A stretch of DNA of 44,764 nt from Amoebophrya sp. A120. Its lineage: Eukaryota; Protista; Dinoflagellata. The notes beneath the pieces are model-generated. The model had not been told where the DNA came from. It saw nothing but the letters and a program-made list of their open reading frames with translations, and did not search any database. Positions 176-29,792 of the stretch are shown here, piece after piece; within the stretch, counting starts at the first letter, position 1; every line of letters starts with the position of its first letter. The position numbers and the translations under genes are program-made. The stretch covers positions 83,228-127,991 of the forward strand of contig CAJINV010000023.1 in assembly GCA_905178155.1 (NCBI GenBank). Reading direction: 5' to 3'.

Positions 176-3100
176 ATGGTGGCGGGCCGCGCTTTCGCCG
201 CGCGGCTGGTTTGGCTTTCGCGCTGGTTAGATTTTCGCGCACGCATTTGGTTACCAATATCGCCCTCCGGGCGCGATCTTCATAAAAGTGGCGACCGCGG
301 CACCGTATATGATGATACCGAGGGCGTTCATCCTCCTGATGAAGCGAAAGGGAACACGACCACAGAGGGGATTATATCCTGAGTAAAAACGTCCCCACAC
401 CAGAGTCAGGATGGGGCTCTGGCAACACAGATCCAGAAGCTCTGGCAGTCACGCATGACAAGTTGCAGTACGTAGTGTAGTGCAGTTTGGAAAGGACAGC
501 CGCATTACAAATTCATGTGCTTTTTATCCTGTTTACAGCAATACAAATCCCAAAACACGATTGCAAATGCCTATCATGTGGATGCGCGTCACAGATGGTC
601 CTGTCATTGCAAATCTGCATGGCAACTGTGGGGTGGGGACTTTTGTGCTCGGGATAGCTGAATGTAGAAGAAGATGACACAGGCTTAGCAGAACTGCTGC
701 AGGACCATGATACCGAGGTCGTTCTTCGCGATGAAGCGAAAGGAAAAGGGAGCACGACCTCCACAGATGTGAATGTAGAAGAAGATGACACAGGCTTAGC
801 AGATATCCTGTGTAAAAATAACGTCCCCGCCCCATAGTCAAGTTGGGAACTTAGCAACACAAATCTAGACGCTTTGGAAGCCACGCATGACAAGTTGCAG
901 CGCGTAGTGTAGTTAAGGTTCCTCGTAAGGACAGCCGCATCACAAGTCCATCTGCTCATCCCATCTACAGCATTACAAATTCCAAAACAGGGTTAGAAAT
1001 GCATCTCGTTGTGACCCGCACTACAAATGTTTCTGTACCTGCACATCTGCATGACAACTCTGGTGTGGGGACGTTTTTGCTCAGCATAGCAGAACTGCTG
1101 CAGAACCATGGAGTTTTATCTTGCCTATCCTGTGCAAAAGTATCGCACTCGTAGTAAAAGTAATTGCAATTATGCATGACAAATCTCTTTCTCAAGGTAA
1201 ATCAGCATCAGAAATTTCATTTGTAATGCTGAGCAAATTTGTCATGCAATTTATACTAGTGCGATGCTTTAGTTGCACTGCATATTGCCGCGTCCTTGTG
1301 CACGACCAGGAACATCGGAAGGAAAAAAACATAGCTACGGTATTTAAATTTATCGAAAGGAAAAATCCCCCCTCCCCATATCAAAACGGAATTTCTGATG
1401 CTGGATCTGTGTACACAAATCAGGTCTGTATTGCAGAGAGGCACCGCGGCCAGATCCCCAGGGCTAGGTAGAGGCGTATGGGTCTAGTTGGTCAGCATGG
1501 CAAACGACTCTCCTTTCGGCCCAACAGCGTGACAAATCAACTCCATAATGGGGCGGAAGCTTCTGCCAACTTGTCTTCTTGCAAGACAGATGTGATTTGT
1601 GACCTGCTCAAACCAGCAACACAAATTTTTGGAAACATGTTTTACCTTTTTGATATGGGGAGGGGGGATTTTTTCTTCTGATAGTACTCCACGATGAGGG
1701 TTTAACCGATCCTACGCGTCCAATGATGAGTTGGAGACGCGGCCCCGATGGCGAACTGGCTTTATGCGTGTATCAACGACCCGCAACCAAGGAAGAAATA
1801 GCCGATGGGAAATTGAAGGACAATGTCAATGCAAACGGTGAAGAACTCGAGCTGATCTTAGAAGGGCCGATCCCAATCGTCCGTCGGCGTAAGTGGTTTC
1901 ATCCGGACAATATGGGAGTGTCAGGATTGAAATCGACAAAGTTGAAATAACTTGCTATGCATAAAATCGATAGCATTCGCAGTCGGTAGCCCAATTTCTA
2001 AGCGGCGCATGACAAATTGTCATTGTGGCAGCGTATATATAAATCCTTTTGGTTTTCCTGTCATGCTGTTTAGGGACAGAAGGCGTCTTTTGTCATGCTA
2101 CTTTCGCAGCTCTATCGCAGACCCCAAACAGGCTGACAATCTGCCTCACTTGCCATACCTGCAAGAGAGGCACTTCACGCCTTGCAATTTATGCATGAGA
2201 AATTATTTCAACTGTGACGATTTCAATCCTGACGCTTCCATAGACAACACGGCTCGCCCTTGGTGGGAAGTGTCCGATGAGGATGATGCAGAGCAACGAC
2301 CTCGACCAGAGCAGGATGCGGACCCGCACACAGTACTACAGCCAGAGCTGGGGCAAAAAGATCCACCAGCTGCACCTACTGCTGGCAGTACTTCTAAAAA
2401 GCGAAAAAAATCTGCCTGTAGCAGTAGTTCGTCGCCTTCCTCTGGCAGTTCCTCTTCTTCCTCTGGCAGTACTTCTAGCGATGACGACGAAGCAGGAGCA
2501 GGTCGTGACAACATTCCTACTGCTATCCCATTTAAAAACGTCCCCACCCCATAGTTGTAATGCAAATCTGCATGCTGAAAATGTTTCTCATGCGGAGCCC
2601 CATGAGAAGCATTTTCCAATCGTGTTTTGCAATTTGTCATGCTCCAATCAGCATGGTATGCTAGATCTGTGATACTGCTGAGCTAGCTCAAACAGCACTA
2701 CACTACGAATCCAATTTTGTCATGCAAAACAGCCAAAACTTGTGGATTTGTCTAGCCGATTCCCCAACTTGACTATGGTGTGGGTACGTTTTTACTCAGC
2801 ATAACTGCCCACCAGCCGAAGCGTCCGCCTCCGCCCAAAAAGCCTGCTTTGAGTTCTATCCTAAGCGCAAACGTTCCTACCCCATAGTCAAGCTGGGGAA
2901 TTTGCAACGCAAATAACCTGGAAGAAGTTTATTTGGGAGTCACGCATGACAAGTTTTGACAGTCGCATATACAAATCCATTTGCTTATCCTCTTTAATAC
3001 AGCATAACAAGTTCCAAAACACGAAGAGAAAAAGAAATGCCTCCAATGGGGATGCGCATTAGAAATGTTTCTGCAATTGCAAATCTGCATGACACCTATG

Positions 3101-5027
3101 GGCTGGGGACATTTTTACACAGGATAAGTTCCTCGTCTTCCTCTAGCGGTAGTGATGATAGCGGTAGTGATGATAGCAGTAGCGATGATGATGAAGGAGC
3201 AGGTTCAGACCGTGACGACGTTACTGTCCGCGAGCCGAAGCGTCCGCCTGTGCCCGAAACGCCTGCTTCCCAACGTCGCGCTTCCTCTGGCAAACAAGGC
3301 ACGGCCGCTGCATCTGCCAATCAGGATGTTGAGGACGATGTCAGATGCCGAGGCCGTACCAAAGGAACAGGCCGAGGTGAAAATAAACGCGACCAAGAAA
3401 GCAACAGCAATGCGGCAAGCCGACCCCGTAGCCGTAGCGGAAGTAGCGCCGCTCAAAGCGACGACCGAAGCCGTAGCCGTAATGAAAGGACGGGTATATT
3501 AAAGCGCGACCAAAGCGGCCAAGGGCGCAGCAGAAGTGCCGGTAGAAAACGCGACCAAAGCCGAAGCCGTAGCAGAACTGCTGGTAGACGCGACCAAAGT
3601 CGGAGCTGTAGCAGAAGTGCCGGTAGACGCGAACGGAGCCCCCGAGGCCGCAGCAAAGGGGCGGGAAAGCGCGACCTAAGCCGGAGCCGTAGCGGGAGTG
3701 CCGATAGAAGACGCGAACGGACGAGCCCCCGAGGCCGCAACAAAGGTGTCGGTAAGCGCGACCAAAGCCGAAGCAGCAGCAGAAGCGCCGGTCGTAGGCG
3801 TGAACGGAGGCGAGGCCGCAGCAAAATGGCGGGCAAACGCAACAAAAGCCCGAGCCGTAGCAGGAGTGCCGGTAACCGGGACCGAAGCCGCGGCCGCAGC
3901 AAAGGGGCGGGAAAGCGCGACCAAAGCCGGAGAGGTAGCAAAGGTGTGGGTAAGCGCAGCCGAAGCCGAGGCCGTAGCAGAAGCGCCGGTAGACGCGAGC
4001 GAAGCAGAGGTCGCAGCAAAATGGCGGGCACAGCACGCGACCAAAGCGGCCAAGGGCGTAGCAAGAGTGCCGGTAAAAAACGCGACGACAGCCGGAGCCG
4101 CAACAAAGGTGTCGGTATATCAACGTGAGAAAAGCCCCCTCCCCATATTATTCGAAATTGCACCACCAGGAGGAAATTTGTGTTGCTGATTTGTCTACGC
4201 AAATGCGTTTGTGTTACACATTTGAGAAGCAAGAGCGAAGCGACGCACTGGGCAAGCCATCTGTAAAAATGCGCTTTAGCCTACAACAGCAACGTCTATC
4301 ATGCTGCAGAGCTAGACCTCTAGGGACCCAAACAGGCTTAGCATGTGCCTTGGCTTCGTTTCTGCACGACAGAGCTGATTTGTGGACACAAATCTGCATC
4401 ACAGATATGGGGAGGGGGGATTTTTCCTCACAATACGGTAAGCGCGCGAACCAGAGCCGAAGACGAAGCCGTGACAGGAGCGCCGCACCAGACAACATCA
4501 ACACCCGGCGGAGCCGGAGCCGTGACCGAAAGCAGAGCCGTAGCTGCCGCCCCCGAAAGGGTGCAGAAAATGATCGAAGCCAATCAAGGAGTATCGACCG
4601 CCCCGGGAACAAAGGTGCCGCAGGGAAAAAACGTAACCAGCAGACGAGCCGCGAGCGGGGGCGTAAAGGCGTTGGCAAAGGGCGTCGTGCAGGCGACCGC
4701 AGCGGCAGCCGTCCTGGACGCCGAAATAATGGACGTCCTCGCGGCACGGGCGAGGCCGATCGGAGTCGGAGCCGCGAGCGAGGTACTTCTTCTAGGGGAT
4801 TTGGCGAACGCAACGCTCGCAGCAATGGCCGGATGGCGGAGGACGAAAGTCATCGGAACGTCGGACGTGGTGGTGATCTTGGCGGGCGCCGCGACGAAGA
4901 GCTAAGCGATGCTGTTGCTGAGTATTTATTGAAGTTCTTGTTCAAAAATACGAACTCCACGGCGACACTTGATTTTGTTCTTCACTCGTCAAAACCATGC
5001 TTTTGTTCTTTGAGTATAACAAACTGA
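176..5027 (+). CDS. Multi-exon gene for an acidic/Ser-rich and Arg/Ser-repeat low-complexity protein, split by 8 introner-like elements; start and end uncertain
   Basis: Removing elements at 375, 804, 1126, 1351, 1911, 2524, 2857 and 4118 plus one TSD copy gives one frame: ..TTEGLNVEEDDTGLAELLQ..GVLSCRVLVHDQ..ATVLHDEG..WFHPDNTARPWW..IPTAHQPKRPP..LSSSSSSGSDD..(RSRSRSAGRR/GRSKGAGKRDQ)n..GVGKRANQSRR.. Confidence 0.75.
375..656. mobile_element. Introner-like TIR element, family A
   Basis: TATCCTGAGTAAAAACGTCCCCAC...GTGGGGACTTTTGTGCTCGGGATA; diverged TSD gatta/gctga; removal keeps frame. Confidence 0.85.
804..1088. mobile_element. Introner-like TIR element, family A
   Basis: TATCCTGTG...CTCAGCATA; perfect TSD gcaga; empty-site paralogue at about 676-702. 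Confidence 0.95.
1126..1284. mobile_element. Introner-like TIR element, family B
   Basis: TATCCTGTGCAAAAGTATCGCACT...TGCACTGCATA; perfect TSD ttgcc. Confidence 0.95.
1351..1683. mobile_element. Introner-like TIR element, family C
   Basis: TATCGAAAGGAAAAATCCCCCCTCCCCATATC...GATATGGGGAGGGGGGATTTTTTCTTCTGATA; probable TSD gtatt/gtact offset by 6 nt. Confidence 0.85.
1911..2242. mobile_element. Introner-like TIR element, family D (long TIR)
   Basis: TATGGGAGTGTCAGGATTGAAATCG...CGATTTCAATCCTGACGCTTCCATA, imperfect TIR of about 55 bp; perfect TSD gacaa. Confidence 0.95.
2524..2803. mobile_element. Introner-like TIR element, family A (reverse orientation)
   Basis: Family A TIRs; interior is the reverse complement of the 375/804 copies; perfect TSD actgc. 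Confidence 0.95.
2857..3126. mobile_element. Introner-like TIR element, family A
   Basis: TATCCTAAG...CACAGGATA; perfect TSD agttc. Confidence 0.95.
3420..4117 (+). repeat. Coding tandem repeat encoding RSRS/SAGRR/SKGAGKRDQ units
   Basis: Repeated cgcgaccaaagccg / agcagaagtgccggtaga / ggccgcagcaaagg units. Confidence 0.85.
4118..4435. mobile_element. Introner-like TIR element, family C
   Basis: CCCCCTCCCCATAT...ATATGGGGAGGGGG TIR core; perfect TSD cggta; empty-site paralogue at 3738-3760. Confidence 0.95.
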
Positions 5028-5435
5028 GCTCACGATGCTGCTAATCAGGACGCTTCGTGTTAGTTGCCGTGATGACTAGAGCAGGTACTAAAAAAGTGCA
5101 GTTGCTGTTGGTCATGTTTTATGTAAAACTTCCCGAGCTTTTATTTTCAATTTCATCCTCACGAACAGGACGGGCGGCACTATCCATGAGTATCGAGATC
5201 CGTCCGAATGATCATCACAACTACAATATATGAGCTAGTATGCTATTTTCTCGTGCGTACGATTTTGATGTACCTGGGGTTCCATTTTATCTACGGGGAT
5301 GGTACTACGTTGTATCACGAAATATTAATTTGTCGAGTGAGCAGTAGATCCTCGCAACTAGAAGTACGTGTATTTGTGATGAAAAAAGTAGTGACAGGGC
5401 TTTGCTTTATCCCTCCATAAAGTAGACAACCGATA

Positions 5436-8400
5436 CCCGGGGGGAGCGGAGTATGGCGCTCTCAACTGTTACATTCTCAACTGTTACATGATTTGTCATG
5501 CAAAATCGCCTTGACTATCAACGCCATCAAGCTGCTTCGCATGACAAATTCTCAGACGGCCAAACAGGCTGAGAATCTGCGCCAAATCTGTCATGCAAGA
5601 CGCGCAAGGTCCTTCCTTTCACTTTTGCCATTCTTGCATCACAAATTCGTGTAACAGTTGAGAATGTAACGTTTGAGAACGCCATACGCAGACGCCACCG
5701 TAGTGAGCGTCCGCCCAATCGAGACAGACGCAACCGTATCCTGTGCAAAAGTATCGTACTCGTAGTAATTGCATTTATGCATGACAAATCTTTTTCTCAA
5801 GGCCGATCCGCATTACAAATTCAATTTGTAATGCTAAGTCAATTTCTTGTCATGCAATTACTATATATTATATTCATGCGAAAAAAGAGGTAGACAGAGG
5901 GTAAACAAGAGGTGGCCGAGAGGTCAAAAAGAGGTCAAAAGAGGTAAAAAAGAGGTCGACAGAGGTGGAGAGGTGGCGCGGGACCCCTTTCGAGAGGGTC
6001 GGCGAGAGGGTGCGCGAGTATAGCCCGCCGAAGGCCCCACCTTAAGGCGGCGCCTAAGTGCCTCAGAGGGTGCAGAGAGGTCAAAAAGAGGGGGCGCGAG
6101 AGGTCGACAGAGGTCGAGAGAGGTGGCGCGAATAAGGGGCGACCTCTCGCGGAACCTCTTGGCCACCTCTCGGCCACCTCTGTCGACCTCTACCCGCGAG
6201 TATAGCCGGATTATTAGCGGGGACCCCCAAAAGAGGGAAAGCTAGAGGGTCTGCGAGAGGTCTGCGAGAGGGTGAAAACGCAAAGTGGTGGGCGCGAATC
6301 CGCATGGTACTACCAATATTTGGCACTGCAGGCCATTCGCGGACTTGTTTTGTTCGGCGCCTGTCCCCACTACCCTCTCGCGCCACCCTCTCGCGCGCCC
6401 TCTCGCGCCACCCTCTCGCGCCACCCTCTCGCGCACCCTCCCTCTCGCGCCACCCTCTCGCGCTACCCTCTCGCGCCACCCTCTCGCGCTACCCTCTCCC
6501 GCCGAGCGCCCTCTGTTCGCCCCCGGTGTTCTTTGCAGCTGCTCCCTGCGCAGAGCGCCCGCAGGCGCGGGAAGCGCGCAAGTGGCCCCGCGGGTTGGCG
6601 CGGCGCAAACCGGCGGCACGAATGCAGTGCGTTTTGTTGTACATAGGCCAGTGGGGTTGTGGTCCGATCGGCAAACAGTCTTGCCCCGGCTCAACAGCCT
6701 TGCGCTCCGGCGGCAGCCGGAGCATGGCTGGTTTATACTAGTGCGATGCTTTTGCAGTTCATAAACCGTAGCGACGAGCCGCAGGGCCGTCGGTCACGGT
6801 CTCCGCGTGGTCGTGACGACCGGCGATCACGGTCTCCGCGTGGTGGTCGTGATCGCGACACGTCCAGCAACAGCAATCCAGACGGAAAAAATTCTATCCA
6901 AGAAAAAAATGTTGGTAGTGTAAATCTGTGATGCGCAACATGCAAAGTGATTGCGTCTGTCATGCTTGGCATGCATAGTACGGTCCATGACCATGAAAGG
7001 GCGTTTTCACGTACTATCTGCGCATGATAGGTTTTTGCTGTCATGCTAGACGAATTTGTAATGCTGTTCGTCCAAAAAAGATACACCTACAACTTTTTTT
7101 CCTATGGATAAATTCGAACAACAAGGGACGCGGCAGGAGCGTCATGCTTGACACCGGACGGGACCGTATGCAAGAAAAAAACTGTGTAAGTGTAATTCTG
7201 TGATGCAGAAAGTGCAAAACAGTTACACTTGTCATGCTGGACATGCATCAGAAGCTCTTTTCGTACGTGTTTTCACGTACTAGGCGCGCATGACAGGCTC
7301 TCTCTGTCATGCAGAGCAAATTTGTGATGCTATTCCTCCAAGAAAGTTACACTAACACAGTTTTTTTCTTGGATAGACCGTCAGCATAATTTATTACGAA
7401 GCAGAACCGAACCACGCGGACAAAAGACAAATAACCGCCGGGGACGAAGTTTATCCTGTGCAAAAGTATCGTAAAACTCGTTGTAATTGCGAACATGCGT
7501 GACAACTCTCCATCCCAATGTAAAACAGCATGACAAATTCTCCATTTGTCATGCTGAGGTAATTTGTAATGCCATTACTACTAGTACGTTATACTTTTGC
7601 AATGCATAAAGTTGCGCTTTTCCTGACAAACGCGTGCGCTTCGAAGATGAAGACGAAGAGGAGGAGTTTATCCTGATTAAAAACGTCCCCACACCTCCAG
7701 AGTCAAATCTGCTAGACAAATCACACAGCTTTGGTTGTTTGGCATGACAAGTTTGTCCTCGTAGTGTAGTCCTGTTTTGGTAGCTCAGAAGCATCACAGA
7801 CCCAGCGCATCACGCTGCTCCTAGCGTCACAAATTTCAAAACACGAAGAGAAAACGCTTCTTATAGGGTTCCGCATGAGAAACTTTTTTGGCATGCAGAA
7901 TTGCATGACAGCTCTGGGGTGAGGACGCTTTTGGTCAGGATAGAGTTCCAGGGTCGTGGTGGACCAAGACCTGCTATCAAATGTAAAAATGTCTGGGTCT
8001 GGAAAAATGGAACTTGTGATGCTGCCTTTAGATTCCAAAAGAATCTGTATTGCATGAGCAGTAAAGGGAATGTAATTTTTGCTACGCGGAGAGGGCATAA
8101 TTTGTGATGCGGAATAGGCATCAAGAAGCCCTTGAAAAATCTGTGATGCTAGGGCACGCATCACAGACGTCATGGCTCATGCAAAACGTGCATGACATCA
8201 AGTCTCAAAATTTTCCAGACCCAGACATTTTTGCAATTGATACTTGCTTCTGGTGGTGGATCGCGCCGAGGACCTCCTCTTCAACAAGGACGAAACCAGC
8301 ACGAACGCCAGAACGATTCGGAGCGCCGGTATGCAAAGAAAAAAGCGTTACAGTTACCATTGTGATTGTGTTGCAGAACGCGCATGACAGACAACCGCTC

Positions 8401-11400
8401 TCATGCAGATCACTGCATTGAGCGTTTCCTCGGTGAAGATGTAGAGCAAGTTTATTGAATGATGTGTTGCTGAAGTTCCAACAAGTGTGTAACTGCAACA
8501 CTTTTTTGTTGGGATAGCCGGACCCGTCGTACTAGTTCTCCGCAAGAACACCAGGTGGACGATCAGGCCGCGCGCCGACAGCGTTCGAATTCGCCTCGTC
8601 GCCCGGCCAGCAAGGAGGACCGGGTTGGCGGCGATCAAGGGCAGCACCAGGATGAGGACCGGCCCCGCTCAACAAGCTCGGGCCAGCGTGAGCAGGTCAA
8701 AAAAGCGACCACGGCAGCTGCCCGTCCAAAGAAGAAAGCAAAAGAAGAGGAGGAGAGCAGCAGCGGCTCGTCCTCCAGTGACAGTTATCACAGGTGGAAA
8801 AAAGTGTTACAGTTATGTTAACACATTTGTTGGAATTTCAGCACCACAAACTTTGTCTGTGTGACAGACAAGAAGGTGGGAAAACACGAATGAAATGAGG
8901 CGGGCAAGCATTTCCTGCATGATCGAGGTTTTGTGTCTTGCTTGTCTTCCATGATCAGAGTGTGTAACTGTAACACTTTTGTCTCGTGATAGCAGCGACG
9001 ACAGCACCAGTAGCAGCGGTAGTGGTTCGACTCCCCCGTCCTCGTCGCCCCCTGGCTATCCTGTGCAAAAGTTAAAGTACGTATTGCAGTATTGCATGAC
9101 ATCAAAACTATTTCCTAGGGGGAATCAGCATTACATGTTGTAAAAGAGATGAAATAAATATAAATTTGTAGTGCAGGTTCTACTAGTTGTACTCCACTGG
9201 TGCGAAGGTACGTAAAAATTTTGCAATGCATACTAGCAATGGAAAGACGAACGCCAAGAAGAATAAACCCGCCGCAAAAGCAAACGCCCAGCAGCGCAAG
9301 GCTGTATCCTTTGCAAAAGTATCGTACTCGTATTGCATTCATGCATTACAAACCTTTTTAATTCATTTTCTTAAGGTAAATCAGCATTACAAATTTCATT
9401 TCTCACGCTGAGGAAATTTGTAATGCATTTATACGAGTACGATGCTTTTGCAACGCATAGGCTGTTGGTGGTGGCGACAAGGATCATGTTGAAGGCCGTG
9501 ACGAAAACGCTGGAGATATCATATGCAAAAACGTACCCACCCCATAGTCAAGTTGGGAACGTAGCAACACAAATCCAGAAGTTTTGGGAGTCACGCCTGA
9601 CAAGTTGCAGTCCGTAGTGTAGAAGTACTAGTGCATGTTACTAGCAAGGACAGCCGCATCACAATTCCATCTGCTTATCCTGTTTGCAGCATTACAAATT
9701 CCAAAGCACGATTGGAAATGCCTCCCTTGGGAACGCGCATTACAGATGTTGCTGCAATTGCAAATCTGCATGACAGCTCTGCTGGGGTGGAAACGTTTTT
9801 AAACAGGATAGGTGAAAATGGAGGAGGTGCTTCCACATCGACCGGGCCCCACGACGCGGGTGCATCTTCGGAGCGTCCTCCCGCTCCTGAACTTACGAAC
9901 AATAATGGCCCGGTCGTGCAGTTGGGGCAGATGTTGTCATCTAGCGCCGACGAAGATCGGGGGCATGATGGCACCAGTTTGTTGACCGGCGCCCACCCCG
10001 GTGCAGGACCAGATCACCCAGCTGCTGAACTTACGAACAATAACGGCCAGGTCGTGGCGCAGTCGGGCCAGCGTCTGTCATCTGGCGCCGACGAAAGAGG
10101 GCAGGGCGGCAATGTGGGTGACGCGAGGACGGTCAACGGAGGGGAGGACGGTATCAACTGCAAACATGTCTCTCTCTATATGGTTGCTGCGCATGTTGAT
10201 GTTTGTGATGCAGTGTCTACTGCGTACCCCAGGACAGAAGGTGTGGCATGCGAGCCTTAGCATCACGACAGGTTTTGAGCCGGTTTCTCAATGCCTAATA
10301 CCAATACGCATAAGTAACAAATCCCTTCGCTCGATGACATCAAGAAAAAGGACTACCTGTTCTGCTGCCCATGCATGACAGATTTTCATTTTTCAATGAT
10401 CTAAATTAAAATGCGCATCACATTCACAAGTCGTAGCTTTCCCGAGTCAGACATATTTGCAATGCATAGTTGGCGTGGTGGAACAACGTGAAGACCGTCG
10501 CCGACCACGTGACGCAGCTCGGTCGCGACGGCTCCTATTCACAGAAAATTTCCCGTACACGTCCTACCAAAACCTCCAATGCGGTTTTTGCATGACAAAT
10601 CTTTCCCTCAATCTTTATTTGAGGGCATGGCAAACTGTTTATGCTCTAGGTAGGGGAACAAATAATTTGTGATTTTCGTTTTTTTAAGTGGACAAAATGA
10701 AATTTGTTTGTATTGCATAACTCCCGAGGACGCAGAGTACCAGGGGGCAGCAAGAAGTCAGGGACCGAAGCCGCGACGAGCCCCGTGCTCATCCGCTTGG
10801 CGACTTACCGAGACTATCCTGCGGAGCAAAACTAGTACCATCGTACGACGTATAAAGCGCATGACAAATTTATTTCCCAGCATGTCAAATGGAATCTGTC
10901 ATGCCGATTCATCTATAGGAAGGAAATTTGTCATGCATAGTTGCGATTACTACGAGTACGATACTTTTGCAGGGCATAGAGACCGCCTGACCGCGGACGA
11001 AGTCGAAGATTTTTTCGACGGTCTCCAGATATCAAAGGCAATTCGGTAAAGTCCGGTTCTGGAAGAATTCAGGGGAGTTTGTCATGCAGTTTTGACCTGA
11101 CCAAGGATCTCTCTGATGCACGCTCTACTAGCATCACAGATTTCATCGCGAAGGGTTGATGCTTATGCACAACCTGCATGAGAAAATCCCTCTCCGGAAG
11201 ATGGCAACAACCTCAGTGTAGTCTTCTGCGGCTCAACATGCAATACAGGTTTTTGTACAATCGAAAGTTTATCGCACGAAAAAACTGTTTCACTGTGAAC
11301 CTGTGATGCAGAAAATGGAACACAAAACTGTTTGTCTTGCTACACATGGAAGGCATTGGATTTTCCAGCGTGTTTTCCCTTGGGAAGTGCGCATGACAAA

Positions 11401-18269: not shown

Positions 18270-18392
18270 TATGCAATGCAAAAGCCTCGTACTAGTATAA
18301 ATTGCATTATACAACTTGGAGGCACATCAGTACAAATTTAATTATGTAATGCGGATTTAGATTTTGATTTACCTTGAGAAAGAGATTTGTAA
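18270..18392. mobile_element. Truncated family B element (one TIR only)
   Basis: TATGCAATGCAAAAGCCTCGTACTAGTATAAA plus family B interior; no partner TIR seen. Confidence 0.7.
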
Positions 18393-19583: not shown

Positions 19584-22500
19584 ACGTGGCGCCACGCACG
19601 GAAAGTCCAATGCTCGGCCATATCGGTACGAACACCACGCTCGGCCAGGGCCAACAGGTTTTTTTGAGCAGCGCTTATGCAGGAACTCCGGCGGCACCGA
19701 CCTGTAGTTCTTCCGACGGCGTGGCTCGTTTCCCAGCGCGCCGACATGTTCAAGTTGATTTTCTTTCGGCAGTGTGGTTCATTTCCCACGGTACGACCAA
19801 CGTAATCACACCCCGCCCACTTTCGCCGAGCGCGGCTGCCGCGCGACCTGAAATGCCGCTACCTGGTGTACCTATGCAAGCATACGAAAGGGGAAATGCT
19901 ATTGCGTTTTCGCATTCTCGAAAGGCCTTGCCATTGTACAATAGGATGAAGAGGTCGCGTCACCTAGTGCGTGCATCTATCTGTAAAGATGAGAATGAGA
20001 AATCTAAATCCTGGGCTCGTCGCAATAGAAAACTGTTTCATGCAAAAGGACGTCGTTGTCGTGCATGTTCTTGTTTGTAAAAAAACGTTTGCAGCGAATT
20101 GAAAAATGTACATGGAAGCAGGGAGAAAGTGTTTCCTTCCATACGTTTTGGAGTTTCCGACTTCGTGAAGAACCGCAAGTCCGATATTAATGCACGACAC
20201 GTATCAAACAAAAAAAGGTCGTCACGATTTCTCGTACGCATTTTTGCAATACAAAATTTTCTGTCATGCGTGAAAATGCACCACAGCCAAACTTTGCAAG
20301 GGATTTCCCTGGTGTTTCCGCAATACAAGGAAAAGTTGCGATGCTGAAAAAATTTGTAATGCAAAACCTGCAGGAAACTGACTGCGACAAACTTTTTTCT
20401 CTCCATAGCACGCCTTTGCGCCACCGCCTGCTCCTTCGTTGACTTCGATCGTTGTGGCGGACGGGCGCTGGGAACAACGCGAAGCCGATTTATGCGTTAT
20501 GGTTTGTCCAGTAACTCACTGTTGCTGTAAAAAAATCAGTGGAGTTTTTGTCTCCCGTACTCTAGGACGTGTTTCTGATTGATTCTGATGTAGGATTTTC
20601 TGTAGTTTTTCTTGGATCCGCAGAAATGAATTAACGCTGTTTCTTGTTTCCACATTCCCACAAGCCCGCTGGTACGGCTTCGGTTAGCCAGGAATGCGAA
20701 TCCGCCTGAGTAAGTAACAACATGCATAATTGTCTTCCACATCCACCTTGTGTGAAGCGGGGCAAGCACTTGCGATAGAACCAACGAAGCGCGCCCGACA
20801 AGATCTTCATTTCCTGAATCGATTTTCTCGTATTTCTATTGTCTTCGGGACCATCAAACTACTGTCCGGCGGGGTATTAACGGTAAAGGTAAAGACAGCT
20901 GCAATTCGCCGCGTTACACTTGTTTCCGACTATTTTGGGCTTCTAGAAGTGGTGCATTCTTTGGACTACTAATTACGGTCCTCGCGGCCTTCTAGAGGAT
21001 TTTACACAGCACCTTGTTATCATCTGTCGCTTGGGTTTAGTTTCCCACGTAGGCAACGCTGGTTGTAGTGACTTTGAGAGAGCCGGCCCGAAAGTAGAAA
21101 AGTGCCTGCGGCCAGAGACATTCATGGGGCCCGATGTTGAGAAAGCGACCAATGGCTTGCGTGTCGAGCGAAATAGATTGAAATCCTCGGAGCAGCCATT
21201 GGCGCTGCTGCAGAGCGCCGTGCCGCAGCTTCTGGTGCGCGCGTCCAGCGGTCGGTTGAGCTTAGTTGTAAAGTCGGTTGTGCTTAGTATTAGATAGTAG
21301 CGCTGGGGTGTACGCCGCATGTGCAGCCTGCCTGGCGTAGACGTGAACAATGCACAAGCTGAGTAGAACTAGAAGAATGCAGACACACGATGCCAACCGG
21401 CTGCTGACACACGACGCCAGCCGGCTGCTGTAGCTAGTTTCCTGTACAGGGCCAGGAGTTTCGTGCCGACGCATCTCGATCGGAACCGTTTCGGGTTCTG
21501 GTGTCCAAAGTAAGCTGTGTGTAGATGGATAGGTAGCCAAATTTAGCGAGCGTGGGAGGTTGGTCTATCCGATTAAGCTCGACAGCTTGAGACCTGTGTT
21601 TGTAACACGGCTTCCGTCTGTGTCCCACTCGTATCGCTTTTTGTGGGGACAATAGGTTCTTGTAGTCCCGCAAACGCCTCTTATAGAAAGATACTTACTG
21701 GCCTGCAAGTGCATGGCTGCCAGTTCGGGCCACGAGGAGGGCTCACCAGCTGTAGGTTGCGCAATGACCAGCAAGTCTGCAGGTCTAGTTTTGACCAGGA
21801 GGCCTGATACTCTTCTACCAGGGGCTTCGTTGTATTTCGATGCCAAGTTGTGGTCGTGAAAAGAAAATAAGCGTACAGAAATGCGCGAGCTAATCTTCTT
21901 TGCTCGGTTCCCCAGCCCAGCTCGGGGCCGCCGTGTGCACAGGTTATTTTTCGTGCTGACGAGACGATCTACAAATGACGCCCTTATTGCATTGCACTAC
22001 TTCTGCTAGTGCGGGCACAAGACAGACTTGTGCAGACAAGCTGAAGAGTACTGTGCGAAGCAGGAGCTAGTTTGAATTGAAAACTGCAGCAACACTGCGA
22101 TTTTTATGTATCCGCTGCGTTCTTTCATCACATTGCGTGTAGCAGGAGACTACGGTTATAAGCAATTACGCACGAAGGGATTGTAATCAGTTGTGAAAAA
22201 ATGAAAACACCTATTAACAACTACAGCAGGAGCAGCATATCCATATCGACAGGGAAAATACAGATATTCCTGGGAGGTCTCCCCTTTTGAAAACTATGCC
22301 TTCTCCTCTATGACCTGCTCAGACGGAACAATGTCAAACGCAATGGCGTCGATGCTAATTCTCAACTATCATAATAAATGTATGACCGGGCACGCGTGGT
22401 CTTGCGAGCCTGTGAGTCAAGGCCGACAGTGGTCGGTCTATATTTTATGAGCGGGCTCAACCCGCCCATCACGGTAACCAAATCCTGAGTAGCATGAATA

Positions 22501-22654
22501 TGAACCAGACAGGGGCGCAGTTTTGCGTTGCTTTTCCTGTTCTGTGTTTGACATGCTGGGTTTTCAGGGACTTGCGCCCCTGCCGATGGTAGCTTGATTG
22601 TGATTTGCCGAGGGTGATTGGAGCTACTGTTTCGCTCTGCCTTAGGCCGATTTA

Positions 22655-23345
22655 TTTCATCCTGATTTCTCCCGTTCTGGAGAGGGAGAGAAGTTTATTT
22701 TCAGTCCTAGTTTCGGACTATGGTTGCTCTCTCCTGATTTCTCCCGGTCCGGAGAGGGAGAGTGAGTTTATTTCCAGTCCTAGTTTCGGGCTAGGTTGGA
22801 TTTCTCCTGATTTCTCCCGTTCCGGAGAGGGAGACGATGTTTATTTCCAGTCCTAGTTTCAGACTAGGTTGGCTTTCTCCTGATTTCTCCCGTTCCGGAG
22901 AGGGAGCGAGAGTTTGTTTCCAGTCCTAGTTTCGGACTAGGTTGGCTTTGGATTTCCATTGATTTCTCCCGTTCCGGAGAGGGAGAGCGAATTTATTTCC
23001 AGTCCCAGTTTCGGACTAGGTTGCATCTCTCCTGGTTTCTCCGGTTCCGGAGATGGAGTGAGGTTATTTCCAGTCCTATTTTCGGACCGTGTTTGATTTC
23101 TCCTATTTTCTGAGGGAGGATTTTATTTTCGTCCTAGCCTCGGACTATGTTGATTTCTCGCGCTTTATATGTTCCGTTCTGGAGAGGGGACTTTATTTCT
23201 ACTTCTAGGCCTAGCTTCGGACTAGGTGTGATCTCTCCTGATGTCTAGCGTTCTGTGGAGGGGAAATCTAGTCTCAGTCCTAGTTTTCTCGGACTATGTC
23301 GGGCGTTGGTTGTTTTCTCCCGTTTCTGGAGGGAGAAAGTGTATT
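22655..23345. repeat. Tandem repeat of about 73 bp, about 9 copies decaying rightwards
   Basis: ctgatttctcccgttccggagagggag..tttatttccagtcctagtttcggactaggtt units at 22662, 22734, 22807, 22880, about 22959, 23032 and onward. Confidence 0.9.
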
Positions 23346-23760
23346 TCTATCGCAGACGGAACAATGTCAAACGCAAAAATGGCGTCGACGCTAATTTTCA
23401 AATATCATGCTGAATGCAGGGAAAACGCCGGCGAAAAGCCAATTGAGTATTTTCTTTCCGTAGTGGCGCAGCGTAGGCGTACGCGTACACATAGCAGATT
23501 CTGCATGGACAGAGAGACGCCGATGTGATGTGGCTTGGGTTCCACAAGTTTGAGCAGCTGATAGTGCGGCGTGCACATGAGGAGCACAAGAAGAACTCCT
23601 GACTCGACAGACTCCGAAAGGGGGGATCACTGAGCACCTTCTGCATCAAGATTCTGCATGACATATTTCTACATTGCTTCGTTTGAAGAGATTGTTCCCT
23701 CTGAGTAGGCCTGCATATGCTCTCCCGGCCGAAACCGAACCGACAACGAAACCGCAAGCG

Positions 23761-25912
23761 ATGATCGCAGCTGCAGGTGGTTTATCAAATGCAAAAACGT
23801 CTGGGTCTGGAAACTTGTGATGCTAAAAGTGGATGATAGCCGGACTGCCGTAGGCAGCCAAGCATGACAAATTTTTGAGCTGCTATGTGTTGCGTATTCC
23901 GCATGAGAAACTGCGTTTTTGCATGACAGATGACTTTGTCCAAACTTATTCTACCTAGAGTTTGTCGAGTAAGTGGTTACCGTTTAAAGGTTTAGAGAAC
24001 GACAGGGACGCCCAGCCCTTAGCTTCCCAACATGACAGATAGGAGAGGCTTTTCGTGCCCATGCATCACAGATTCTTGAGTCATGTCAGACATGCATCAC
24101 AAATGTAAGAATCTTCCAGACCCAGACACTTTTGCATTTGATATGGTTCAGCAGCAGCACCGTCTCTACCTTCGCGGCAGCCGACGAAAAACTCGAGCCT
24201 TTTTCTCTCTTGCTCCACCTTGCCGTCGAGCTTCGGGGTGACGGTTTACAATGCGGTGTTCAATCAGCGGCAGATGGACTCCTTCTATTTCTGGCGGTAC
24301 TGCGGGCCGGGGGAAACCAAGAGCCTGATCGACGCGGTGCGGTTTCTGAAAATCTATCCACTGCAAATATGTCTGGGTCTGGAAACTTGTAATGCTGAAT
24401 GGTCATGGTTGAGCGCGCCTTTAAGTGCAGTGCAGCATGACAAATTTTCTTTATTCTTATATACGCTTTCTGTTTCTGATCCTAGTTGGTGCGCATTACA
24501 AACTACGACTTTTCACGACGAAATTGCGGCGCGATTGTTGCTTTTATTCAATTACAGAGTTTCGTCCTGAAATGCTGGACACGCAATACAGATTCAACCT
24601 TTATTCCCGACCCAGACATATTTGCAATGCATAAAGTCAAGGGGTGCTCGATTTCCATGCCGCTGAAGGCCGAGGTGATTCAACATCTTGACGATGTCGA
24701 TCCGGAAGCCCGGGCGGTGAACAGTGTGAACACTGTGGTGCGTTCGGAATCGCCCGAAGCGGATGGCCCCGCAAGGCTGATCGGGTACAACACGGATCTG
24801 ATGGGGTTTCGCGAAATGTTCCAAAAGGTTGGTCGGGACAACGAATTCTTTTCGACGACCGCGGACGGCGGCGGGGATGAGATATTGCAGCGCGACGTCA
24901 ACGTGTTGATCTACGGCAGCGGGAGTGTGACCGACAGCATCCTCCACGTGTTGCTGACTATCAGATGCAAATATGTCAGGGTCTGGATGGAATGGAACTT
25001 GTGATGTTCTGCGTCAGTCTCCGAAAAATCTGTAATGCATGAGTAGCAAATTATGAATTGAAGTTGTGCACTTTATTTTGTTTTGCTTTTCGTTTCATTT
25101 CTTGGCCGCCCTGAGAGAAAATTGCTCATGCGGAATGGGCAGTGCAAAGCTGTCGCAAAACGTGTAATGCTGCGCCCTGCAACCAATCCAAGCAAAGCCA
25201 GACCCTCCGGGGCATATAATGCCTGCGTGACTCTGGCTCTTCCCGACCCAGACATAGTTGCATTGGATGCTGACCCTGCAGCAGCAACTGCAGACTCATT
25301 CCGTCGGAAATCCCCAGAAAAAACTCGCTCTGTTCCTCACCGCACGGGACCGCGAGAAGGCCGCTGCCAAGGCAAAGGCGTGGGCATCCGAAGCAGGGGA
25401 GGTCGAGGTCGTGGAATTACCCGAAGTAGATGTAGTTGCGGATACAACCGCCGTCAAAGCGTCGACGCGGCAATACCAGGTTCTCATCAACGCGACACCG
25501 ATGTCGCTCACCGCGCCACTCCCGCCTGCGATCACCACCTTGCTGACCTCGGCGTGCTCCGAATCGGACTGCACGTTGAATGTGTTGGACCTCGTCGTGC
25601 CGGAAAAACAGAACCACCTAAAAGCCTTTTGCGAGGATTCTCCCCCGCCGTCGGGGGCGCGAGGAGGCAACCTGCGATACTACGGGGGATTTTTGATGTA
25701 CCAGTTTCAGGTGTGCAAACTATCCAGGAAAAAACACCCACCCCCATCCATTTTTTGCATGACAAACAAAGGAGTTTTATGCATGTTTTGTATGACAAAT
25801 TGGATGGGGATGGGTGTTTTTTCCTGGATACAAACAGTTCGAACTTTACACGGGCCAGAAACTCACACCCAAGGAGGTGCGCGAGATTTGCGCAAGCAGG
25901 GGGTTGCCGTAG
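23761..25912 (+). CDS. Shikimate dehydrogenase family protein (AroE fold, SdhL/HI0607-like), about 356 aa, 5 exons
   Basis: Exons 23761-23782, 24149-24354, 24639-24958, 25275-25720, 25836-25912 (1071 nt, in frame). Motifs: LFLSCSTLPSSFGVTVYN, GCSISMPLK (catalytic Lys), SVNTVV, GYNTD, VLIYGSG, LINATP, QFELYTGQ. Start codon uncertain. Confidence 0.9.
23783..24143. mobile_element. Introner-like TIR element, family G, with a small internal insert
   Basis: Family G TIRs; perfect TSD tggtt; catgacagat duplicated at 23922 and 24031. Confidence 0.95.
24355..24633. mobile_element. Introner-like TIR element, family G
   Basis: Family G TIRs; TSD aaatc/aagtc; removal joins VRFLK(I/V) to KGCSISMPLK. Confidence 0.95.
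24959..25269. mobile_element. Introner-like TIR element, family G
   Basis: Family G TIRs, right end GATG instead of GATA; perfect TSD ctgac. Confidence 0.95.
25721..25830. mobile_element. Introner-like TIR element, family H (110 bp)
   Basis: TATCCAGGAAAAAACACCCACCCCCATCCA...TGGATGGGGATGGGTGTTTTTTCCTGGATA, near-perfect TIR; perfect TSD caaac. Confidence 0.97.
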
Positions 25913-25915
25913 TTT

Positions 25916-26064
25916 TATCCTTGCAAAAGTATCGTACTCGTAGTAATTGCACTTATGCATTACAAATCTTTTTCCTAAGGTCAATCAGCATTACAAATTC
26001 CATTTCTCATGCTGAGGAAATTTGTCATGCAACTTACACTAGTACGATACTTTTGCAATGCATA
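25916..26064. mobile_element. Family B element at the duplication junction, with non-matching flanks
   Basis: Intact family B TIRs but flanks agttt/ggatt; right flank starts the duplicated exon block. Confidence 0.9.
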
Positions 26065-26098
26065 GGATTTTTGATGTACCAATTTCAGGTGTGCAAAC

Positions 26099-26313
26099 TA
26101 TCCAAGAAAAAAACTGTGTTAGTGTAACTTTCTGTGGCTGACAGCATCACAGATTTCCTCTACATGATAGAGAGAACCTGTCATGTGTGGCTTGTAAGGC
26201 AAAACACACATGGAAAAAGGACTTCATGGCTGTTTGGCATGACAGGCGTAAAAACTCTCTTGCATGTTCTGCATTACAACAAAGTTACACTTACACAGCT
26301 TTTTTCTTGCATA
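26099..26313. mobile_element. Introner-like TIR element, family F
   Basis: TATCCAAGAAAAAAACTGTGTTAGTGTAACTTT...AAAGTTACACTTACACAGCTTTTTTCTTGCATA; perfect TSD caaac. Confidence 0.95.
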
Positions 26314-26388
26314 CAAACAGTTTGAACTCTACACGGGCCAGAAACTCACACCCAAGGAGGTGCGCGAGATTTGCGCAAGCAGGGGGTT

Positions 26389-26537
26389 TATCCTGTGCAA
26401 AAGTATCGTACTCGTAGTAATTGCAAACATGCATTACAAATTTCTTTCTCAAGTCAAATCCGCATTACAAATTTTTTTTTCATGCTGAGGAAATTTCTCA
26501 TGCGATTTATACTAGTACGATGCTTTTGCATTTCATA
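26389..26537. mobile_element. Introner-like TIR element, family B
   Basis: Family B TIRs; perfect TSD gggtt; site is empty in the first exon copy (25901-25905). Confidence 0.95.
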
Positions 26538-27049
26538 GGGTTGCCGTAGTGCTAGTGGTGATTGTAAGTACGCATTATGGACAGAGTACTTCTGATGCTC
26601 AAAGCCAAATCATGTGAGAGTATAGCTGCACGACAACTCTCCCCTCACTCGTCTGAAGTCTCCAGCCTGTAAGTCCAACAAGGATCCTAAGCACCAGTAG
26701 CGATAAATTGCGTCAAATACAGCTACTGTAGAGTGCTGTTGGATAAAGGACTTGATTTGATTAAGTCATTCGTTTTTTAGACTACGGAGACGGACATTTG
26801 ACGCGGACGATGTGCCAGAGATCTACAGGAAAACGTTGGGGATGCTGTGTGCTGAATAAAATAGGAAACTTTTGATGTGAACTGAAAGCACACGAAGTGT
26901 GCTGCGTTGTCGCCATTGTTCGCCGTCTTCCCGGGTGTGGAGGGAAGCTCCGGCGCGCGCAGTGAGGGCGTGAAGGCTGGAAGACTGCTTTACAGGAAGA
27001 AAATTTCGGGCGAGGATTCGGTTTCTGCCTCACATAATGATAATACCGC

Positions 27050-27700
27050 CGCAGACCGCGAGAACAAAAATCGATGGCTTTTTTTGCTCATCAGGTTCCA
27101 GTCCTTGGAGCCCCTGGTGCCGAGCATTGAGCTTGACTCCGCTCGTGATTCGAGTGCGCTTCTTTTTGCGTTTTGGAGGCAAAAAGCTGGAATGAAAACG
27201 GTTTTTCATATTTTCCTGTAGGATTTCGTTTCACACCATGCCGTCGGGGGCCGCGGAGAGGTTTATGGGTTTTTTTTGCTCATCAGGTTGCAGTCCTTAG
27301 GGCCTCGCGTGTGGATTTTTAGCCCAGATTTCGCCACTGATTCAAATAGCCTCTTTTTTGCGCTTGGGAGCCAAAAGTTGAAACAAAAAATGTTTCTGCT
27401 ATTTCCATGTAGACTTTTGACTTACGCCATACCGCTGTGCTGGGCCGCGGGTACGATTGAGGGCCCTTTCCTCAGCTGGCCGCAGTCCTTTGGGTCTCGG
27501 ATGCCCAGGAGCATCGCACCAGATTCCACTCCTGGTCAAAAAGATTTTTTTTTGCACTTGGGGCGCAATAAAAAGTTGAAATGAAAACGATTTCGCACAT
27601 TTTGGCGTAGCGGTTTGTTGACTTACGTCATACCGCTTTGGTCATCTGGCTGCAGCCCTCTGGGCCTCTGGTGTCGAGTCTTGAATCGGAATACGCTTTA
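27050..27700. repeat. Degenerate tandem repeat of about 190 bp, 3 or more copies
   Basis: tttttgctcatcaggtt(c/g)cagtcctt and related text recur at about 27081, 27273, 27470 and 27650. Confidence 0.7.
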
Positions 27701-28189
27701 TTGGTTTGAAACATTTTTCAAACAAACAGTGATAAGTAGTCAGAAACACAATTGAAACAATGCGAAGCTGCACGCAAAGGCAAGAGCGAGAAAGTCATTG
27801 CAGCCAGGCCACCAAATAAAAATGCGCACCACTCGCACCCTCAAATTAATTCAGTGGCCTGGGCCGCATGTAGTCAAATTCATCCCGACGAACCCTTTAG
27901 GCAGCTTTCAAAATGCGCCTGCTCCTGCAGGAGAACATGAGAAAAGAAACTAAGTACATGACAAGCATCGAGTGAAAGAAGATATTTGGGCAATATGGTC
28001 AAGATCAGGTGGATCACAACTTTCTTGTAGGTTATCATTCTCAGTGTCGCCCATTGCTATACGTAGCCGTCCAGCCCCTGAGACCACAGCGTGCGAGCTG
28101 ATTCTTCGGGGACCATTTCTTTGCGACATCAGTTGCCGTCTTCTCACGAGAAGAAAAAGGTTTTCTGGACGTCTGCCGTTTTCTTTGAG

Positions 28190-28484
28190 TATTGTATCCT
28201 ACGTAAAAACTACGTCCCCACACCATATTCAAGATGGGAGATCTGCGGCACAAATCTCCAAGTTTTGGGAGTTCTGTATGACAAGTTTCCATCTGCAGTG
28301 TAGTGCTGGTTAGCAAGGAAAGCCGCATGAGAAGGCCACTTACTGATGCTGCTTACAGCATCGCAAATTCCAAAACACGGCTGGAAATGCGTCTCAAGGA
28401 GATGCGCATTACAAATCGACTTCGACTCCTGTCATTGCGCATTTGCATGACAACTCTGGGGTGGGGACGTTTTTACACAGGATA
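28190..28484. mobile_element. Introner-like TIR element, family A (probably in a 5' UTR)
   Basis: TIR proper starts at 28195; TSD ttgag at 28185-28189 and 28485-28489. Confidence 0.9.
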
Positions 28485-28548
28485 TTGAGTTCACACTGTT
28501 CTTCTCGGTTTGGTGGACACCAGCGACAGAGCGAACGATCAGGACACG

Positions 28549-29792
28549 ATGGCTATCCTGTGCAAAAGCATCGTACTCGTATTGCAGTCATGCATTACAA
28601 GTCTTTGCTTTAAGGTAAATCCGCATATACAAATTTTCTTTCTCATGCTGAGGAAGTTTGTAATGCATTTATACGAGTGCGATACTTTTGCAATCCATAA
28701 TGGCACAGCACGGACAACCACAACAACCGGACCCGCCTGGCAACGGCCAGCCACAGCCTGCTGCGAACGTCGATGATCCGGCCTTCATGCGGAATTGGCT
28801 TCGGATGGGCCAGGGAGGTGCGCAACACAACCGCCCCGGGGTGGTCGCAATGGAGTATCGCATGATTTGGGAACACTGGTCGCGGCGGGAGGTGCTTATC
28901 TTTGCCGTCTTCTGCCTGATTTTCGGGGTTTGGATTTCCTTTTCACCCCCAGCGCCGGGCCGAGACCTGTACAGAAGTGCTGTGGACGTACGCAGGGGCA
29001 GCGGGTCTGTTCACACGGAAGATGATACTGCCCGGTCCACCACCGTGCCTGCTGCTGTGAAAAATCGCGACGGCAAGAAAAGCACGGACTTGTCCTCGGC
29101 GTCGCCGCTATCATTTTTCCAAACCGAAAGAGATGAAGGTCACGGTCAGCAGCGCGAGAAGATGAAGAAACCTGGGAGCCGTTCTGGAGCTAGTACGGGG
29201 GTCTTACCCTTACGGCTGGAACTGGAGATCTCGATGCCTCCTCGGGGAACCGTATGCAGTGCAAAAATGTCTGGGTCTGGAAGGATCCAAACTTGTCATG
29301 CTGTCTTTGGATTCTAAAAAAATCTGTGTTGCATGACCAGCAAGAGGAGCCCAGATTGTGCTACGTGGAGAGGGGATTTGTCATGCGGAATAGGCAGCAG
29401 GAAGCCTTCCAAAAATCTGTGATGCTAAGTCATGCACTACAGGCATCATGGGTCATGCAGAATATGCATGACAAACCTGGCGATCTTCCAGACGCAGACA
29501 CTTTTGCATTTCATAAACCGCCACTCTAGCGCATTCCAACGCGGCGGATGATACGGGAGGTCACGACGCCACGACTGATCATGGTTCCTACACGTTCGAC
29601 GTGGAGGTGCTGCCACCCGATGCAGCGGAGTCCGCCGCTCTGGAAAATAAACGATATCAGCATGAAAACCGTTGTTCCCACTCCGTGATGAAAAAATTTG
29701 AAGTTTCCTTCTGCTGTAATTTGTATTCGACCTGTATTTTCAGCATAAAAAACACTCCAAGGAGATGCTATCTCAGGCGACAGTACGAATAA
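28549..29792 (+). CDS. Hypothetical single-pass membrane protein, 5' exons; may continue into the 30822-31496 ORF
   Basis: Spliced MAQHGQPQQPDPP..EVLIFAVFCLIFGVWISFSPP (hydrophobic segment)..MPPRGTATLAHSNAADD..; frame restored across elements at 28554 and 29253. Confidence 0.6.
28554..28699. mobile_element. Introner-like TIR element, family B
   Basis: Family B TIRs; perfect TSD atggc. Confidence 0.95.
29253..29515. mobile_element. Introner-like TIR element, family G
   Basis: Family G TIRs; perfect TSD aaccg. Confidence 0.95.

Follow-up and report, generated by a model that had tools for sequence, protein, structure and literature searches.

A single cut register may define the borders of TAT...ATA introner-type introns in an Amoebophrya sp. 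A120 locus

Introduction

The closest described counterparts of the elements reported here are the introners of the dinoflagellate Amoebophrya sp. A120 (hereafter A120), in which more than 60% of introns are non-canonical and 29,850 repeated introner elements have been described (Farhat 2021, PMC7789003). Their inverted-repeat (IR) motif opens with TAT, continues with seven variable bases and closes with three or more A, they carry direct repeats of 3–5 nt, and the legend of Fig. 3 in that paper gives the splice sites as variable and the border as unknown. A120 has U2, U4, U5 and U6, and of 89 spliceosomal proteins it lacks only 6; U1 small nuclear RNA (snRNA) was not detected (PMC7789003). 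A later study reports A120 terminal inverted repeat (TIR) elements of approximately 150, 210, 260 and 310 bp and, among the 38 of 58 A120 rows of its Dataset S2 covered here, a family 38 described as ‘Ginger; 5-bp TSD, TA/TA termini’ with integrase-like open reading frames (ORFs; TSD, target-site duplication; Gozashti 2025, PMC12130899). Here, we analyse a 44,764-nt stretch of A120 DNA (contig CAJINV010000023.1; ‘the window’) that holds 55 TAT...ATA elements with paired ends, and ask how they leave the messages of their host genes. Statements on published work refer to the consulted sections of each source.

The window elements are like the A120 introners in IR motif, direct repeats, arrangement in families, non-canonical ends and RNA-seq-supported removal, and nothing in the consulted sections of PMC7789003 differs from them in kind; here, though, the TSD is uniformly 5 bp, every resolved junction is compatible with a register of −1/+4, and removal extends to elements that are nested, in tandem or mutated at their ends. 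The identity of one window protein to the annotated A120 protein P0001, together with the end motif of Farhat 2021 (PMC7789003), shows that this is the published system in the published organism. A preliminary description of this DNA, made from the sequence alone, had drawn the link to Amoebophrya introners correctly but implied too much novelty, as end motif, 3–5 nt direct repeats and RNA-seq support were already in Farhat 2021 (PMC7789003). As a system the elements are known; the cut rule and the invariant positions are what we add. In Gozashti 2025 (PMC12130899), by comparison, the automated calls give TSDs of 2–6 bp and conflicting splice-site origins, with no common register among the rows covered.

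Several more distant systems share parts of this architecture. The nonconventional introns of Euglena (Nomura et al. 2025, PMC12501133), for which the authors favour a distinct machinery, follow 5'-N3CDG..CH'GN5-6|R; they too have inverted ends like those of miniature inverted-repeat transposable elements (MITEs), lack GT-AG and keep fixed spacers from a short inverted motif, but the motif is CDG/CH'G, with spacers of 3 and 5–6 and a purine opening the next exon, against TAT/ATA, 1 and 4 and no purine preference in the window (a purine begins the next exon in 26 of 55 cases). The Euglena signature is absent from the window elements, and Euglena is an unrelated lineage. Introns of Giardia and Trichomonas (PMC6679479) have a VTAT 5' site (VTATGTT in Giardia) with a relaxed first base, an invariant branch-to-3' distance and, where long, shortening through base pairing; they differ in having a conserved branch box and a 3' AG, and in being few and not transposon copies. 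Those of Fritillaria borealis (PMC13326754; PMC11282704) are transposon-derived, with TIRs and TSDs, and use an adapted U2 spliceosome, but U1 is present and the ends are largely defined (AG-AC, AG-AT), whereas both intron ends in the window come from an arbitrary target duplication. IS3EU/GingerRoot transposons (PMC10045372) have TA..TA termini and an integrase-related, IS3-like DDE transposase, with a TSD that is usually 6 bp rather than the 5 bp found here.

Elements stay in DNA contigs and are lost from likely transcript contigs

The elements are retained in DNA contigs, and the element plus 5 bases is lost from contigs that are likely transcripts. Eleven sequencing runs were listed, none on record as RNA. 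The DNA side is one run (X1, of unspecified life stage), whose table of joints is dominated by other element copies (15 of 1159 rows listed). Its contigs cover 23400–31600 evenly at a depth of ∼36–48, and an unbroken 1145-nt contig (24605–25749) runs through exon, element 24959–25269 and exon at a depth of 47.8, with flanks at 36–46. Runs X3–X6 are one sample, with RNA status guessed; in five bins that lie between or outside exons, X3 depth falls to zero while X1 stays at 43–71. Across 6520–22600, X3–X6 give 29 joints, and each of the 15 listed is present in all four runs and equals an element plus 5 bases, including a nested pair (520 nt), a tandem pair (1557 nt) and two elements around an 18-nt micro-exon. 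The raw-read runs X9 and X10 contributed 13 and 4 reads, all on element ends.

Taken over the window, 23 of 23 resolved junctions lose the element and 5 bases in the likely RNA contigs; the 23 comprise 16 listed joints, two adjoining pieces and five obtained by length arithmetic (two pairs interdependent). X3–X6 are likely transcript-derived, and the removal is likely RNA splicing. This is the precise removal of cut-and-paste-type elements, together with one TSD length, that the preliminary description had inferred. Its statement that many junctions cannot form GT-AG also holds: a GT..AG reading at some equivalent position is possible for only one of the 23 resolved junctions, and the canonical U2 end rule, GT (or GC) ... 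AG, does not describe the others. A solo left end on the plus strand, without a right TIR (18270–18400, end approximate), is apparently not spliced, as contigs run ∼29–40 nt into it (side lengths of 105 and 116 after 18194); this read-through weakly suggests that a right end is needed.

One register fits every resolved junction

Where the two copies of a TSD are identical the cut cannot be placed, whereas copies that differ bound it. Just one register, with the cut after TSD base 4, lies within all 23 allowed ranges; registers 3 and 5 fit 20 each. The listed joints by themselves bound the register on both sides: the copies at 11030 differ at base 5 and the tandem pair 12904/14311 sets the same limit (cut at or before base 4), while the copies at 12000 differ at bases 3–4 (cut at or after base 4). 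Length arithmetic at 19883 fixes the cut at exactly base 4. Register 5 is ruled out by 11030, the tandem pair and 19883, and registers of 3 or less by 12000, 19883 and 29655; one-sided contig ends at 28195 and 31430 also require register 4 or 5. The sole GT..AG-capable element, 14922–15071, reads GT..AG only in the fitted register (+4).

Assuming one register, we infer from the mismatched duplications that the intron is N-TAT...ATA-NNNN, from one base before TAT to four after ATA (−1/+4), so that the message would keep bases 1–4 of the left copy and base 5 of the right copy. Under a fixed register of this kind, an element that duplicates 5 bp would be neutral wherever it inserts and whichever way it points. 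Splicing has the same polarity for both orientations of the interior, since 12000 (minus) needs register 4 or more and 14509 (plus) 3 or more; 10152 (minus) and 19297 (plus) each need at least 3. The polarity result carries the caveat that two minus family A members keep the same left-end type, so their interiors may have flipped between the TIRs. For family C in other loci, the ends track the interior in 15 of 16 asymmetric cases (orientations 21 and 12). A statement of the fixed register in print was not found in the literature searched, which did not extend to published figures and 20 rows of Dataset S2.

Mismatches between TSD copies at bases 1 to 5 number 11, 8, 3, 1 and 3 in other loci, fewer at bases 4–5 than at 1–3 (p 0.01), and 10, 11, 13, 7 and 4 in the window, where the difference is not significant (p 0.23). 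Pooled, bases 4–5 hold 15 of 71 mismatches; these bases twin the last and first bases of the intron, and their lower mismatch count hints that the terminal bases of the intron are weakly constrained.

Four positions are invariant in the fitted register

With the fitted register, all 55 elements have T at +2, A at +3, A at −7 and T at −6, and +1 and the last four intron bases take all letters. Four spliced elements with altered triplets (a TAC start and ATG, ATG and ATC ends) keep all four positions, two of them breaking the terminal pair. Altered triplets were also found, from DNA alone, in 15 of 283 elements of other loci; the four that orient clearly (TAC..ATA twice, TAT..ATG twice) fall into the same two classes, a weakly oriented variant (L126) points the opposite way, and a borderline one (L054) would alter A−7. 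Over TIR positions 4–10, complementarity to an element's own partner end is not above the family level (permutation p 0.72). C follows TAT in 41 of 55 elements at the 5' end, and the corresponding base is close to evenly split at the 3' end, an asymmetry not seen in other loci (79 versus 71 of 105).

What removes the elements

Our preferred reading, to which we give a probability of roughly 0.6, is that these are published A120-type introners, non-autonomous TIR transposons that are most likely spliced by a modified, U1-less spliceosome cutting at fixed distances. In this reading the TIR would supply a 5' splice site, N-U-A-U, whose +2 U is the first T of the element; branching likely occurs at the A at −7, from which the 3' site would be measured by distance, independently of an AG. 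End pairing likely brings the two sites together and is likely not the signal that is read. Precedents are found in Giardia, whose introns combine a relaxed base ahead of TAT with a constant spacing from branch to 3' site (PMC6679479), and in Fritillaria, where a spliceosome has adapted to introns derived from transposons (PMC13326754; PMC11282704). If so, the removal in A120 of more than 60% of introns without GT-AG, and apparently without U1, becomes testable on existing data through the −1/+4 register, which names the true first and last bases of the intron, four invariant positions and a putative branch adenosine, which lariat reads in RNA-seq could reveal. A fixed register would also allow the non-canonical intron borders of this genome to be re-annotated consistently.

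Several points weigh against a spliceosome of this kind. A lariat, a branch point and spliceosome dependence are predictions of this reading, with the locus covered by contigs. Invariance of the four positions is partly built in, as most elements were found through their TAT/ATA ends, and 4 of the 15 altered triplets in other loci, of no clear orientation, change the middle base, which would break it if those elements are spliced. The last two intron bases are free, with 35 end combinations in 56 candidates, and a free 3' dinucleotide is tolerated by no spliceosome in the consulted sections of the literature compared. A hairpin model would lead one to expect that own ends match better than cross ends, as they do over positions 1–30 (p 0.006), and that elements pair their ends, as predicted for 46 of the 51 no longer than 600 nt; elements with TIRs are bound to fold in this way. 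For the register itself, six to eight junctions are informative; five of the 23 come from length arithmetic, 14 of the 29 joints are unlisted, and all four informative runs are the one sample of guessed RNA status.

Part of this evidence would suit a non-spliceosomal RNA machine (an endonuclease with a ligase, or circularisation) that measures from the paired element ends with spacers of 1 and 4, which we consider possible but rather unlikely. The first and last intron bases are free, and the full freedom of the 3' dinucleotide favours it; the terminal triplet and the A-tract/U-tract positions are able to pair in 50–55 of 55 elements, and the 46 of 51 that fold end to end, the seemingly read-through solo left end at 18270, the undetected U1 snRNA of A120 (PMC7789003) and the Euglena code, with its short inverted motif set back by fixed spacers (PMC12501133), all point the same way. 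Against it, spliced TAC..ATA and TAT..ATC elements break terminal pairs, the wobble-preserving mirror TAT..GTA is not clearly seen, and five elements, two of them with listed joints (10536 and 11030), are not predicted to pair their ends; the register also places the invariant T at +2 of a 5' splice site and yields GT..AG when the TSD allows it. The structure-guided splicing proposed earlier finds partial support, as some spliced elements break terminal pairs or have ends not predicted to pair. The bolder form of the proposal, a second machine that reads neither GT nor AG and removes tens of thousands of insertions without a scar in either orientation as a convergent twin of the Euglena machinery, is to us similarly doubtful; if true, an insertion of any member of the superfamily, at any target and in either orientation, would become a scarless intron. 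A bulge-helix-bulge geometry, as cut by tRNA endonuclease, was rejected, as a direct repeat does not provide the 4-bp helix on which it depends.

Compatible with either machine is a cut that slides within the duplication, for example across registers 3–5, so that the single register would be a coincidence of a small sample; this we think improbable. Most junctions do allow a range, with only three excluding register 5 and three excluding 3 or less, contigs lose minor variants, and in Farhat 2021 the splice sites are said to vary in position with respect to the hairpin (legends of Fig. 3 and Fig. S23, PMC7789003). Register 4 nevertheless lies within all 23 ranges, and the one-sided ends at 28195 and 31430 call for 4 or 5. 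The published variability may instead reflect mapper output where the TSD makes a joint ambiguous. Least probable by far is excision from DNA in one life stage, in the manner of ciliate internal eliminated sequences (IESs), with the element-free contigs as rearranged DNA. An IES is by definition missing from a working DNA copy, and such loss would be permanent in a lineage that has no separate somatic nucleus. Room for this idea comes from the guessed RNA status of X3–X6 and from the single DNA contig set aligned, with its 15 of 1159 joints listed. X1, however, retains element 24959–25269 at flank depth, the zero depth of X3 outside exons in five bins is what transcripts would give, and the polarity of the cut follows the gene and not the element interior (a mirror rule needs register 1 or less for 12000 or 14509), findings that speak against the IES-like excision entertained in the preliminary description. 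The published A120 introns likewise rest on RNA-seq junctions (PMC7789003).

The elements are one superfamily with a 5-bp duplication

The 55 elements, one of them nested, span 375–31606; 53 lie inside 375–29520, the range for which about 50 had been claimed, and the remaining two are 29655–30906 and 31430–31606. The list was curated by hand from TAT...ATA pair scans, an end profile and contig alignments, the last being the sole source for elements 15417, 19883 and 22309. The outer elements together amount to 16,982 bases. Identical 5-bp flanks border 32 of 55 elements against 9 of 2970 cross-pairs, and for the 52 elements compared at flank lengths of 2–9 there is a single peak at 5 bp (31/52), with no match at 6 bp (0/52). 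An automatic scan of 1–32000 returned 30 pairs with TIRs and a perfect TSD, against 0–2 in each of 30 shuffles. Two empty paralogous sites, 682–702 (plus strand) for insertion 804–1088 and 25893–25912, in the first copy of a duplicated last exon, for insertion 26389, hold a single pentamer where the element at 804 is flanked by two, which indicates that the 5-bp duplication is made on insertion. Removal of an element with 5 bases gives back the target sequence. With TIRs, an insertion-made TSD and no coding capacity seen, the window elements match MITEs.

The ends read TAT-N7-AAA (position counts over 82 ends and over 55 elements), with TA at the left terminus in 55 of 55 and at the right terminus in 52 of 55. 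A subterminal 9-base motif occurs 95 times within elements and once outside, and is present in 44 of 55. Six families are multi-copy in the window, with copies at most ∼90% alike, and for two that occur once in the window, 12 and 5 relatives turned up in other loci, giving eight families in total. The earlier count of at least eight families is thus borne out, but not their being unrelated: the common ends and subterminal motif make them one superfamily. A further candidate, 4925–5419 (left end TTT, possibly decayed), was dropped, as its removal keeps the frame but leaves a stop at the junction and does not connect host frames 1 and 2.

Two elements contain large GC-rich inserts (5862–6730 and 13126–14262); direct repeats of ∼35 bp, made of host element sequence, flank the second insert, and its 1402-bp element is still removed whole. 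The 1409-bp element that interrupts the shikimate-dehydrogenase-like gene within its first codons contains a 73-bp tandem array of six copies (22654–23108).

Related loci and a candidate mobiliser

One end pattern matched at least 130 loci (380 kb) in metagenome contigs, and flanks were taken for 80. In these other loci, 197 of 262 TIR pairs, called without using the flanks, have a perfect 5-bp duplication; overlapping loci inflate such counts slightly (234 unique of 237 elements). No cognate autonomous element was found among the 237 elements in 380 kb, the longest of which is 1255 bp and without a long ORF, and the family A end pattern had no match in viral contigs. In agreement with the preliminary description, no transposase was found in the window: Pfam gave no match in 11 stop-free stretches from the long elements and 32–37.5 kb, including 7 from the four long elements (a subset of the stretches present), or in 38717–39781, and Rfam gave 0 matches in 1–41500.

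A DDE transposase of the integrase type, with its gene at another place in the genome, is the likely mobiliser, and family 38 of Gozashti 2025 (PMC12130899), with its similar description, is a candidate for this type. The preliminary description went too far in calling the mobiliser unresolved, given the integrase-like ORFs of family 38 (PMC12130899).

Host genes

Removal of each element with 5 bases gave stop-free frames of 853, 822, 399 and 524 aa over 8 + 28 + 5 + 5 = 46 junctions, in line with the frame restoration described earlier for about 40 junctions in four gene models. In the control, random removal of 3, 4 or 5 bases (1000 trials per gene) reached the observed length in 3, 1, 242 and 41 trials for frame 1, frame 2, the shikimate gene and frame 4; the trial for gene 2 used 715 aa, before the addition of one element. 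With 242 random matches, the shikimate gene is poorly supported by the frame test on its own. All host genes in the window are on the plus strand, and in 375–31606 no ordinary GT-AG intron is present among the listed joints (15 of 29), each of which is an element.

The shikimate-dehydrogenase-like gene (22296–25912, plus strand, 373 aa) holds five elements: 22309–23717, 23783–24143, 24355–24633, 24959–25269 (ending ATG) and 25721–25830. Without them, the model equals the annotated A120 protein P0001 (373 of 373 residues identical), and one exon matches a protein labelled as Amoebophrya sp. A120 at 100% identity. A match to Pfam PF08501 (Shikimate_dh_N) at P0001 residues 52–126 spans one junction, that at 24355, in line with frame restoration across shikimate dehydrogenase motifs as first proposed; the exon downstream of 24355 by itself matches just model positions 51–83. 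In this gene an X3 contig skips 284 and 316 nt, in each case an element with 5 further bases, and an X4 loose end at 22309 maps to 23724. The last exon is duplicated (block 25893–26537, with elements 25916–26064, 26099–26313 and 26389–26537), and an X3 piece begins at 26538. Within 25684–26550, both copies of the last exon hold an element at the same pentamer, from different families (110 and 215 bp); were the left end of the first element to pair with the right end of the second, the second exon copy would take the place of the first.

Host frame 1 (167–5024, plus strand), supported by its reading frame alone, is 853 aa after removal against 376 unspliced, Ser- and Arg/Ser-rich, and holds eight elements (375–656, 804–1088, 1126–1284, 1351–1683, 1911–2242, 2524–2803, 2857–3126 and 4118–4435).

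Host frame 2 (5426–16345, plus strand; 822 aa, 28 junctions) has no clear start codon located, and one 4584-nt X3 contig connects its exons from upstream of 9814 to beyond 18194. Its first twelve elements are 5452–5686, 5737–6763 (with a large GC-rich insert), 6895–7110, 7167–7375, 7452–7608, 7669–7942, 7975–8242, 8330–8516, 8786–8991, 9057–9232, 9305–9459 and 9517–9810; their removal restores the frame, they are absent from the 15 listed joints (of 29), and for 9517 the 3' side alone is seen, as a contig piece beginning at 9814. Elements 10152–10468, 10536–10719 and 10815–10978 are each removed with 5 bases, with joints for 10536 and 10815 and a 740-nt length sum for 10152. Element 11030–11544 leaves together with 11270–11478 nested within it (520 nt; joint 11025>11546 in four of four runs), and joints are listed for 11625–11919, 12000–12150, 12189–12448 and 12489–12810. 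The tandem pair 12904–14305 (with its internal insert) and 14311–14455, with one TSD between, is removed as 1557 nt (joint 12897>14455 in four of four runs); depth is zero in 12964–14037, and no exon is left between. In the fitted register the two introns of this pair, which share the middle TSD (12899–14460), abut with a zero-length exon, so that removal must be either recursive or via the outer ends.

Downstream of the pair, 14509–14667 and 14691–14841 are removed with the 18-nt micro-exon kept between them (joint 14508>14842, 13 letters between), followed by 14922–15071 (joint 14916>15072), whose TSD lets the intron read GT..AG. Joints also mark 15120–15356, 15417–15621 (ending ATC) and 16059–16311, as well as 17270–17563 and 17944–18193 in the presumed 3' untranslated region. 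Beyond lie 19297–19583, 19883–20143 (starting TAC, TSD fully decayed) and 20202–20407; the inferred intron at 19883 is 19882–20147, from pieces that end at 19881 and start at 19587 and 20409, with 50 nt between.

Host frame 4 (27954–31678, plus strand; 524 aa stop-free, first Met 28549) holds 28195–28484, 28554–28699, 29253–29515, 29655–30906 (ending ATG, TSD decayed) and 31430–31606. X3 contigs end or begin at 28193, 29247, 30911 and 31428, matching the prediction for element plus 5 bases.

Other features of the window

A left end resembling family C, decayed and with no partner end found, lies at 39332 in a 355-aa frame (38717–39784). The 890-bp segment 33960–34849 has 82-nt inverted arms (82% complementary) and starts with TAT, but fails TAT-N7-AAA with a 5-bp TSD; it is possibly another TIR element in a gene-poor region. 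At 41545–44281 is a 14-bp T-rich satellite of 195 copies that are 98% alike. It was rejected as a telomere, as other sequence follows it and it differs from the TTTAGGG motif published for A120. Around it, at 39856–40453 and 44691–44764, lie degenerate 13–15-bp arrays and a repeated linker block.

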